IMG/VR virus record: IMGVR_UViG_2622736468_000001
Origin: a virus
Taxonomy: Duplodnaviria; Heunggongvirae; Uroviricota; Caudoviricetes
Direction: 5' to 3' (one strand)
Length of the DNA: 16,017 bases
This document shows positions 11,838 to 12,979 of the stretch, one piece after another. How positions within the stretch are numbered: position 1 is the stretch's first letter; every line of letters begins with the position of its first letter. Both the position numbers and the translations under genes were made by a program. The notes beneath the pieces were generated by a model. It was not told the DNA's origin, ran no database searches, and worked only from the letters and a program-made list of their open reading frames with translations.

Positions 11838-12586
11838 ACTGAGCACGCTGTACACGGTGGAACATATGGTGGTCAGGAGACGGCAGGAGCAGCGACAGAA
11901 CGCGGCTCCGTATCAGTGGCATAAGCCAGAGCCACAAATGAGGAATTTCAAAACCCCTTCTAAAGGTATTTTCATGAAAATCAGCCTTCGAATACATACA
12001 CACGAAAACTTTGATTTAGGCTTAACCCGTTGATTCTTCCACAATCCTCAATTTGAGGAAGTCGGCGTGGTAACTCATTGAGATTAAAGCAAAGCGCAAA
12101 ATTGCGCTGGCTGAATAATCATTATGATTACGCAGATGATTAAGGCCTAAGCCGTTGATTCTTTCGAAATCCCCCATTGGGGGAAACCGGAGCGGTTACG
12201 GCGGTAACTTGTTGATATTGTTCCAAAGCTCATTTTTGAGCTTTGGCCTGCTCAGTTTATTCAACTTCCGTCAGTGGTGGGCGTTGAGAAACACTGCTGC
12301 GTGGTATTACTCTAACCCATTGATGTTTATTGCTCATTTACTCGATTATTTGAGTTGTTCAAATTCACCAGTCGTAAAACCATGATTTGTACATCCCCGA
12401 TATCGGGGTATGTAAACCATCCAGACCGGGCCAGCCAGCCCTGATTTTTACATCCCTCACTTCTGAGGGCTGATAACAAACCATCTTTAAGAGGGTCAGA
12501 ACTACGAAATTTTCGTAGTTTAACTTTCATCCAGTGCATCTCCGAATTACGGGTATGTAACCACAGCTATTACGAGGCGATTGTTG

Positions 12587-12979
12587 ATGCGTGATATTCA
12601 GCAGGTTCTGGAACGCAGGGGAGCGTGGGCGGCAAATAATCGCGAGAATGTGACCTGGTCATCCGTTGCCGCAGGATTTAAGGGGATTATTCCGGCAAAG
12701 ATAACATCACGCCCACAGTGCTGTGACGATGATGCGATGGTGATATGCGGGTGCATAGCCCGCCTTTACCGGAACAATCGCGATCTGCATGAGTTGCTGG
12801 TTGATTACTACGTGCGGGGGATGACGTTTATGTCACTGGCGCAAAAACATGAATGCTCTGATGGGACTATCGGAAAGCGGCTGCAAAAAGCTGAAGGTGT
12901 TATTGAAGGAATGCTGATGATGCTGGATGTTCGGCTGGAGATGGATCGGTATGTTGAGCGCGATTCAGTGACGGCATAA
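12587..12979 (+). CDS. Phage antitermination protein Q family (QuuD/YbcQ-like)
   Basis: 130-aa ORF with GAGG upstream of the ATG at 12587; contains the family-typical stretch WAANN...VTWSS.AAGFKG...[17 protein letters not shown]...[15 protein letters not shown]...[18 protein letters not shown], as recalled from the DLP12 Q-like protein. Confidence 0.8.

Follow-up and report, generated by a model that had tools for sequence, protein, structure and literature searches.

The satellite P4 encodes delta, a homologue of the late activator Ogr of its helper phage P2, which can turn on the late genes of the helper in trans. Delta is a zinc-finger transcription activator and also drives the late operon of P4 itself (sid-delta-psu). 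The late antiterminators of lambdoid phages, the Q proteins, act as the switch for Shiga toxin 2 (Stx2) production from phages such as 933W, and the Q allele type is linked to the amounts of toxin that strains produce. One group of them, Pfam family PF06530, was described as the 'Q21/Q933W family', whose helix-turn[loop]-helix recognises two 8-bp subsites arranged as a direct repeat (bioRxiv 10.1101/651190). For AntQ, a Q-like protein of the Salmonella prophage Gifsy-1 that is associated with the small RNA IsrK, expression was reported to cause readthrough at host terminators and toxicity (PMC4825925). Here we describe a Q gene in the viral record IMGVR_UViG_2622736468_000001 (Caudoviricetes), whose whole stretch of 16,017 nucleotides is called the window in the following. 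The window consists of an island of about 14 kb that resembles phage-inducible chromosomal islands (PICIs), and Q is its last gene, preceded by about 1.6 kb of non-coding DNA. Q belongs to the island and not to a prophage. As its role we tentatively propose an action in trans on the late promoters of lambdoid or Shiga toxin (Stx) helper phages.

The protein is a member of the Q21/Q933W family of lambdoid late antiterminators, which agrees with the initial annotation of a Q-family antiterminator in a satellite-like island. PF06530 (Phage_antitermQ) covers it in full length (1-118 of 118, E 1.5e-49, 167 bits at a cut-off of 26) and PHROG 79, 'anti-termination protein Q-like', is matched with E 1.1e-47. 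Using phmmer, the Q21 chains of PDB 6P18/6JNX were found by sequence (E 2.5e-7). The AlphaFold model (pLDDT 74) has the Q21 entries 6P19, 6P1C and 6P18 as its top Foldseek matches in the PDB, and region 4 of extracytoplasmic function (ECF) sigma factors matches the C-terminal ~65 residues with root-mean-square deviations of 1.3-2.5 Å, all E-values of these fold matches being weak (>=0.04). They fit what has been published on Q21, a protein that resembles sigma-R4 and has a helix-turn[loop]-helix. Among phage proteins, those of Shiga-toxin phages come closest, with 82% amino acid identity over 126 residues to Q of the Stx2 phage 933W. The last 18 residues of 933W Q are missing and the island protein ends in a C-terminal tail of its own (DSVTA). 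In the window's copy 47 invariant columns of the family are preserved, but Arg stands at the near-invariant Trp-11 (see below). The interval 12380-12979 initially given for Q has the correct end, and its beginning lies in an upstream palindrome tract. The gene itself starts with ATG at 12587, MRDIQ being the start of all homologues, while a program-made list of open reading frames (ORFs) had placed the start at TTG 12581. The features of the gene are as follows.

12587-12979, plus strand: Q antiterminator gene, ATG at 12587, stop codon ending at 12979, 130 amino acids (aa), island-type allele
12791-12946, plus strand: DNA-binding half of Q (sigma-R4-like helix-turn[loop]-helix), exchanged recently with a prophage Q allele
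12980-13079, plus strand: 3' flank of Q, specific to the islands and almost without variation between them, no phage record beyond chance at E up to 10

Related PICI-like islands likewise have Q as their last gene, with the C-terminus and the 3' flank of about 100 nt that are seen in the window. An E. coli copy of the window's island (NZ_CP145698, 99.5% identical, locus L001 below) is located between tRNA-Gly (glyU) and the E. coli type III secretion system 2 (ETT2) region, and Q is also terminal in islands at this site that carry different cargo (ProQ/FinO, PerC). The same holds for an island between cspD and clpS, whose integrase is only 29% identical, and for an island between yicC and dinD in O157:H7 with a different primase. 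A further Q-ended island adjoins an SBP_bac_5/ABC transporter (dpp-like) operon, and at two other loci yqeG/yqeF follow the Q-ended island; these two may represent the glyU site in strains without ETT2. Taken together, Q-bearing islands occur in at least four distinct chromosomal contexts, with two different primases and with integrases that are 28-37% identical to each other. Of 5426 complete E. coli genomes, 113 contain the island-specific junction of Q and its flank (12962-13079), in each case in the chromosome, and the junction has no counterpart among 50,697 phage records. Many of the 113 strains are named Shiga toxin-producing E. coli (STEC), O157:H7, O111:H8 or O145. All 19 island-type Q proteins recovered are intact, free of frameshifts and stop codons, and 18 of them have exactly 130 aa. 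The pairwise ratio of non-synonymous to synonymous substitution rates (dN/dS) among seven island alleles ranges from 0.07 to 0.30 at dS of up to 0.69; the island alleles are under purifying selection. The position of Q in varied islands, the 19 intact proteins and the dN/dS values together rule out a prophage stump and make a non-functional passenger unlikely. The initial annotation had offered a stump of a lambdoid prophage as one of two explanations, and had named as a refutation a Q that belongs to an adjacent degraded lambdoid prophage and is missing from all other copies of the island; the opposite was found, since Q is shared by islands whose integrase, primase and context are swapped.

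The distribution has its borders as well. Q is missing from a related E. albertii island whose primase is 74% identical and which shares the SSB-ProQ-PerC module, and also from four loci with more distantly related primases. The search for distant islands by way of the primase gave only 6 loci, none with Q, which limits its reach beyond E. coli. In none of the islands examined is Q followed by late, lysis or structural genes; the other islands have there, at most, small ORFs without annotation or a convergent ORF of 124 aa. The latter ORF (MDTHDKIPPAYSYSPQ...) is conserved near attR on the minus strand in several islands (L002 18820-19194, L010 16192-16566, L019 11398-11772), is without Pfam or PHROG match and is missing from the window's variant.

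Island Q alleles are mosaics containing tracts of 98-100% nucleotide identity to prophage Q genes, which include the DNA-binding half. In the window's allele, nt 211-360 of the gene (12797-12946) are identical in 147 of 150 positions (~98%) to Q (protein P0020, locus L028) of a common stx-phage-like prophage, compared to 22-28 of 30 per 30-nt window in the N-terminal half, and the similarity ends at codon ~121. This prophage is widespread (P0020 on >600 contigs), and one motif of the DNA-binding half is common to five non-island Q proteins. A second allele type, represented by L010, shares tracts of 60/60 nt with Q of 933W and of BP-4795, again including the helix-turn[loop]-helix, and carries the 933W motif SDTCIGKRLHKAEG; about 30 genomes have this type in island context. 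Within the DNA-contacting loop SDxxIGK, the variable residue pair is GT, GH, SL or TC in islands, and the variants GT and GH were found in non-island Q proteins too.

Downstream of Q, the window contains only non-coding DNA, the second block of iterons and IS66-family insertion elements, just as the initial annotation had described. The single features of this part are:

12985-13014, minus strand: intrinsic-terminator-like hairpin, CCGCAG-loop-CTGCGG followed by T7 on the minus strand
13100-13200, no strand assigned: second small hairpin array (CCCTCAAATGGAGGG, CCCCTAAAGCGAGGG, ATCCCCTAAAATGGGGGAT), in the window's variant only and not present here in L002, L010 and L011
13250-13426, plus strand: second block of iterons, duplicating 7464-7657 (ori side) at 94% identity together with the promoter-like TATATATATAAAGCGTGTGAATGAT
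13421-13462, plus strand: start of a conserved non-coding block of ~190 nt, beginning with CTGAATGGTGATAATCACCACGCAGACC and cut by IS66 from 13463

A Q-dependent cassette of the phage type, with late promoter, qut and terminator directly after Q, was not found by homology and promoter scan. Late (lysis or morphogenesis) genes are missing too, the distance from Q to attR in L001 being 750 bp of non-coding DNA. In a blastn search of 12975-13085 against the 50,697 phage records only chance matches were obtained. Smith-Waterman comparison of the whole island with pR'-qut-tR' of 933W gave a shuffle-level score, and so did the comparison with the Q-downstream region of the donor prophage (that of P0020). 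A seemingly shared 8-mer (CCACGCAG) was not significant and was dropped. No acceptable plus-strand sigma-70 promoter was found after Q in the promoter scan of 12980-13460. The downstream sequences are constant across islands whose Q proteins differ in the DNA-reading loop, which makes a co-evolving Q-binding site in this DNA less likely.

The hairpin at 12985-13014 is conserved in all islands aligned; its 11-nt loop lies outside the range of the terminator scan. Given the A7 run before the hairpin, abutting the Q stop codon, it represents an intrinsic terminator for the opposite strand and could end the transcript of the convergent 124-aa ORF. The duplicated segment of ~180 bp comprises inverted iterons TGAGGCRAC, an AT-rich spacer and TATATATATAAAGCGTGTGAATGAT, with copies after the primase gene and after Q. 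The iteron is limited to islands with the window's primase allele, and a function as Q-binding direct repeat was rejected because the iterons track the primase allele and not Q. The ~190-nt block follows Q in every island examined (L001 18428-18625, running on to attR; L010 15477-15662) and starts abruptly at CCTGAATGG / CCTGAATGGTSATAATSACC behind four different left contexts. In the divergent island L023 two internal hairpins of the block are swapped for different sequences that are still hairpins, and covariation support for a structured RNA is weak (4/51 pairs). Small ORFs on either strand of the block were discarded, as a stop codon in L011 and frameshifting indels interrupt them.

An intact antiterminator under selection, a DNA-binding half that was repeatedly replaced from phages, and the lack of late genes and of a phage-type qut in the island together point to action in trans. 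We suggest that island Q acts on the late promoters (pR'/qut) of lambdoid or Stx helper phages with which it shares DNA-binding specificity, a proposal that we rate as somewhat short of an even chance. The alternative of the initial annotation, that the island uses Q to hijack or alter late transcription of a helper, is hence the best-supported explanation, by inference from the phage-identical DNA-binding halves and the missing copy of phage Q-downstream DNA. In this scheme, transcription of the rightward operon of the induced island would pass the hairpin and terminator-like array and reach Q. The protein would bind the Q-binding element of the phage and load on RNA polymerase paused just past the phage late promoter, and the Q-loaded polymerase would ignore terminators. 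Lysis, head, tail and packaging genes of the helper, along with stx where present, would thus come on at the island's timing. That Q is expressed, loads at the phage pR' and benefits the island is inferred. A more far-reaching version, which we consider rather unlikely, is a portable late switch: with a DNA-binding half copied from the phages it meets, Q would load at the constitutive late promoter of a repressed prophage and drive lysis, virion and stx genes without induction. If so, the output of Stx and of helper particles in some STEC would be set by a 14-kb island and not by the toxin phage alone.

Several observations weigh against action in trans. The scan revealed no sigma-70 promoter for Q, and two terminator-like hairpins are located upstream of it on the plus strand; its expression is therefore putative. 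Some island-bearing genomes contain a single Q-like locus at the megablast level, so that a resident target is not always present. The phage-identical tracts may reflect neutral gene conversion instead of selection for matching specificity. Moreover, the island may possess an unrecognised cis site; the ~190-nt block opens with the palindrome GGTSATAATSACC containing a -10-like core, which could be a target in cis. With regard to packaging by a helper, a lambda cosN was sought without success, allowing up to 3 mismatches in the window and up to 2 near the right end of its relatives. Finally, the near-invariant Trp-11 is changed to Arg solely in the window's allele group (7 of 120 homologues), Trp being kept in the other island alleles. 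Comparisons of the window-type allele with other alleles lie at the high end of the dN/dS range, and together with the IS66 cut the exchange indicates that the window's own copy may be a weakened or impaired member of an otherwise well-kept family.

The region upstream of Q is occupied by an array of palindromes, in which the initial annotation had noted three. Direct reading of the sequence bears out their presence, with coordinates 2-9 nt off: the first, put at about 12392-12417, is found at 12390-12414, the second, put at 12445-12460, lies 9 nt further on, and the third, given as 12501-12520, spans 12500-12520. The cluster is larger than had been stated.

11950-12586, no strand assigned: palindrome/hairpin array, including the three palindromes below and a hairpin at 12537-12557, ~30 nt before the start codon
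11984-12065, minus strand: fragment of a phage roi gene (Rha-type antirepressor), 82 nt, 95% nucleotide identity (blastn, phage collection)
12390-12414: palindrome TACATCCCCGAT/ATCGGGGTATGTA
12454-12469: palindrome CCCTCActtcTGAGGG
12500-12520: palindrome AACTACGAAA-T-TTTCGTAGTT

In 11950-12586, ten stems of 6 bp or more are perfectly paired (loops of at most 8), compared to 1.45 +/- 1.2 in dinucleotide shuffles, none of 300 of which reached this number. Six more occur in 11000-11950 and none inside the Q ORF. Alignment of four, and then of ten, islands revealed a modular array: from island to island, single units may be missing, doubled or placed in another order, and the indel lengths are not divisible by three. 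ORFs that run beneath the palindromes on the minus strand (70 aa in the window; 120 and 164 aa in relatives) were rejected in view of these indels, their variable length and the lack of Pfam matches, and the region is treated as non-coding. When the whole window was searched for RNA families (E up to 1), no match was obtained in 11000-13500.

Part of the array derives from phage antirepressor genes. The roi fragment is identical to Roi of phage JLK-2012 in 25 of 27 aa (tblastn) and has diverged partial repeats at 12137-12199 and ~12313-12330. Palindrome CCAAAGCTC(A/T)TTTTTGAGCTTTGG falls within a phage KilA-N gene and palindrome AACTACGAAATTTTCGTAGTT within a phage KilAC antirepressor gene, both on the opposite strand. 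These fragments are collinear with no single gene, and a palindrome is at the centre of each. Genuine phage KilAC, KilA-N and roi genes contain perfect palindromes with 10-bp arms in their coding sequence, at about residues 42-74 (L026 1501-1542, L027 1501-1543, L012 2501-2582). That such palindromes were kept as isolated scraps beside island Q suggests a role of their own, or recombination joints.

Equivalent positions of repeated units have changed their stem sequence with the hairpin retained, e.g., CCTCAATTTGAGG vs TCCCCCATTGGGGGA, and every island has a hairpin of the type (A/G)CATCCCCG-loop-CGGGGTATGT at ~30-150 nt from the Q start. The GC-rich hairpins, whose sequence varies, resemble RNA or single-strand structures, some of them terminator-like. 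Both strands of the array fold with z of about -2.5 to -2.7, which is why folding does not assign the hairpins to one strand. ACGAAAnTTTCGT and GGTSATAATSACC, by comparison, occur both upstream and downstream of Q with their sequence preserved and are suggested as candidate protein-binding sites. The palindromes are not obviously Q operators.

Could Q act within the island itself? In such a model, which we judge improbable, Q would load at an island promoter near GGTSATAATSACC or the duplicated TATAAAGCGTGTGAATGAT and read through the hairpin arrays as a positive-feedback switch. In the excised circle, transcription would cross attP and go on into int and the left part of the island, because the island genes share one orientation. 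This co-orientation speaks for the model, as do the terminator-like hairpins strongly enriched on both sides of Q and the ~190-nt block, which is present just after Q behind any left context with a palindrome containing the -10-like GATAAT/CATAAT. A promoter-like segment followed by the -10-like AATGAT is furthermore duplicated before the ssb-to-Q operon and after Q. On the other hand, the candidate sites are unchanged among the GT, GH, SL and TC loop alleles, the duplicate of iterons and promoter tracks the primase allele, and the spacing from candidate promoter to block varies by >300 nt between islands. The promoter scan and the covariation analysis mentioned above do not support the model either, and most of the block is lost to IS66 in the window's copy. 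Interference with a phage appears similarly unlikely to us. Here Q would fire the late (lysis) genes of a lambdoid phage, infecting or resident, too early, or would cause AntQ-like global readthrough, R-loops and growth arrest, and the phage yield would be cut. The phage-matched DNA-binding half and the lack of a cis qut of the tested kinds fit this abortive infection equally well as action on a helper for the island's benefit. By global antitermination, Gifsy-1 AntQ is toxic to Salmonella and to E. coli without prophages (PMC4825925), helpers are commonly hampered by PICIs (PMC6739421; PMC6092414), and the restriction-modification system in the cargo slot makes defence a theme of the island. 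The one Salmonella homologue examined, however, sits in an ordinary prophage. Interference and activation are not cleanly separable, because a satellite needs the late proteins of its helper.

Least probable, and in our estimate quite unlikely, is a passenger, i.e., a piece of the nin-Q region (ant-roi-...-Q) caught once by an ancestral island, with the palindromes as decaying antirepressor scraps. The roi, KilA-N and KilAC fragments just upstream of Q would be expected for such a capture, and isrK-C4-ant-roi-ninG-Q forms one co-oriented block in Stx-type phages, the ends of which the island shares. The related E. albertii island without Q, and W11R with the adjoining IS66 insertion in the window's allele, are in line with it. 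Yet the scraps are inverted relative to Q and, as described, are collinear with no one gene, and the palindromes were kept far above chance while the surrounding sequence was lost. The low dN/dS values at considerable dS, the absence of frameshifts and stops, and the position of Q retained through exchanges of integrase, primase and cargo speak against it as well. An action of Q on the island's own isrK-like leader, in a Gifsy-1-like layout, was also considered and is unsupported; in Stx-type phages isrK/C4 lie upstream of ant-roi-nin-Q.

The remaining parts of the island were identified by Pfam, Rfam, PHROGs and the RefSeq annotation of the near-identical island in NZ_CP145698. In order of position they are:

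1-1215, plus strand: tyrosine integrase
1858-2061, plus strand: AlpA-like helix-turn-helix regulator (PHROG excisionase/regulator; PF05930 in relatives)
2126-2764, plus strand: Rha-family protein
4004-4192, plus strand: isrK-like and C4 RNAs (Rfam)
4842-5141, plus strand: DUF4222
5138-7276, plus strand: DUF927 primase-helicase
7300-7657, plus strand: ori iterons
7678-8094, plus strand: hypothetical gene
8091-8540, plus strand: single-stranded DNA-binding protein (SSB)
8765-9904, plus strand: C5 cytosine methylase
9840-10916, plus strand: 358-aa ORF, overlapping the end of the methylase gene, without Pfam or PHROG match
13463-16017: IS66-family elements, TnpA-like 13534-13935 (plus), TnpC 14082-15620 (minus), TnpB 15670-16017 (minus)

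All island genes are co-oriented. The intact island L001 measures 13.9 kb between 19-bp repeats of the tRNA-Gly 3' end, with attR 750 bp past the Q stop codon. In the window, the IS66 end GTAAGCG begins at 13463 and takes the place of the final ~285 bp of the island, attR among them. The layout is that of Gram-negative PICIs, with an integrase at the end, an AlpA-type regulator, a primase followed by an iteron origin, and genes in one orientation; size, own att site and the absence of structural and lysis genes agree as well. No structural or lysis families were found in the window using Pfam and PHROGs, and no Rpp or TerS family was matched in this type of family search. A 12-mer GTGCGGCGACCC, 2 mismatches from lambda cosN GGGCGGCGACCT, was observed at matching positions in five loci (L002 14140, L010 12151, L011 12624, L013 8257, L019 8060). 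In L002 and L013, those checked by annotation, it lies ~50 nt inside a PerC-family gene, which is absent from the window.

The Rha-family gene is marked as frameshifted by RefSeq in the near-identical island, and several small ORFs of the left arm are flagged as pseudogenes; this copy of the island may be partly degraded. The C4 antisense RNA at 4105-4192 scored 77.7 bits, and the isrK-like RNA at 4004-4080 scored 48.3 bits, slightly below the gathering score of 50. Both RNAs and an a1/b1-like target, all in 3991-4417, fall within a RefSeq 'Icd-like' ORF of 504 aa (2903-4417), which is probably spurious over most of its length. The segment 3991-4417 is 87% identical to regions of Stx2a phages; given this identity, the island and Stx phages may cross-regulate each other via C4-type RNAs. 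The 358-aa ORF is, by its position, presumably the restriction endonuclease partner of the methylase. An exact 30-nt repeat GACCGACCGTTCACCAACAGAGGTAATTCA (8565-8594 and 11573-11602) flanks the two genes, its second copy being the beginning of a conserved 57-aa ORF. In related islands the methylase slot holds ProQ/FinO and PerC genes, and it looks like a hotspot of cargo exchange.

Among known systems, the Gram-negative PICIs EcCICFT073, EcCIEDL933 and EcCIMP1 share int, an AlpA-family regulator, antirepressor/Ash, and primase with iteron ori with the island described here (PMC6092414; PMC11773190). PerC-family cargo (in relatives), a size of ~14 kb, the absence of structural genes and own att sites are further common traits. 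The island differs from them in lacking a lambda-type cosN and a recognisable Rpp or TerS; Q is not mentioned in the PICI papers searched. A short-tailed Q of the same family with 78% identity, QuuD, is found in the defective prophage DLP12, which shows that Q genes can persist in elements that are not phage-competent. QuuD, however, keeps its prophage context, with nin genes upstream and the porin gene nmpC directly downstream, beyond which lie the DLP12 lysis genes, whereas the island Q is part of an integrase-bearing element of satellite type. Q of 933W (and of H-19B/BP-4795) belongs to the same Pfam family, and the model of the island protein resembles the Q21 fold. In the phage, the gene and its own late promoter overlap, and qut, tR', tRNAs, stx and lysis genes lie downstream; in contrast, the 3' flank of the island gene is unrelated. 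Gifsy-1 AntQ, compared here by description, is Q-like, has been studied in a setting other than the classical late switch, and lies alongside an isrK/C4-type RNA and antirepressor module, and the island likewise has isrK-like and C4 RNAs. AntQ is part of a complete prophage and is placed directly upstream of isrK-orf45-anrP and lysis genes, whereas in the island 8 kb separate the isrK/C4 module from Q, which lies downstream of it, and there are no lysis genes after Q.

In full-text searches of open literature and in the papers on PICIs and satellites that were consulted, subscription literature being outside this scope, no PICI or other satellite was described as having a Q gene or another antiterminator gene. 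The protein family and the island type are each known; their combination, as read from the sequence, was not found described. About 2% of the complete E. coli genomes, among which many are named STEC, have a second, island-borne Q, and some of its alleles have a DNA-binding region identical to that of 933W. If island Q reaches phage late promoters, it would be an unrecognised input to toxin production and phage release. Should it prove inactive in trans, it would represent a natural Q separated from its promoter and would be useful for studying the evolution of Q specificity by domain swapping.

In its logic, the nearest precedent for island Q would be the pair of P4 delta and Ogr. The island has further P4-like features, namely an immunity RNA of the C4/CI type, a primase-helicase and, at a distance of 5.8 kb from each other, two blocks of iterons that resemble ori/crr. 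Delta has no sequence relationship to island Q, which belongs to an antiterminator family, and the island has no known late operon. If the proposed action in trans is true, the island would carry the first antiterminator-based satellite copy of a helper late-gene switch, in parallel to P4 delta/Ogr by means of an unrelated protein.

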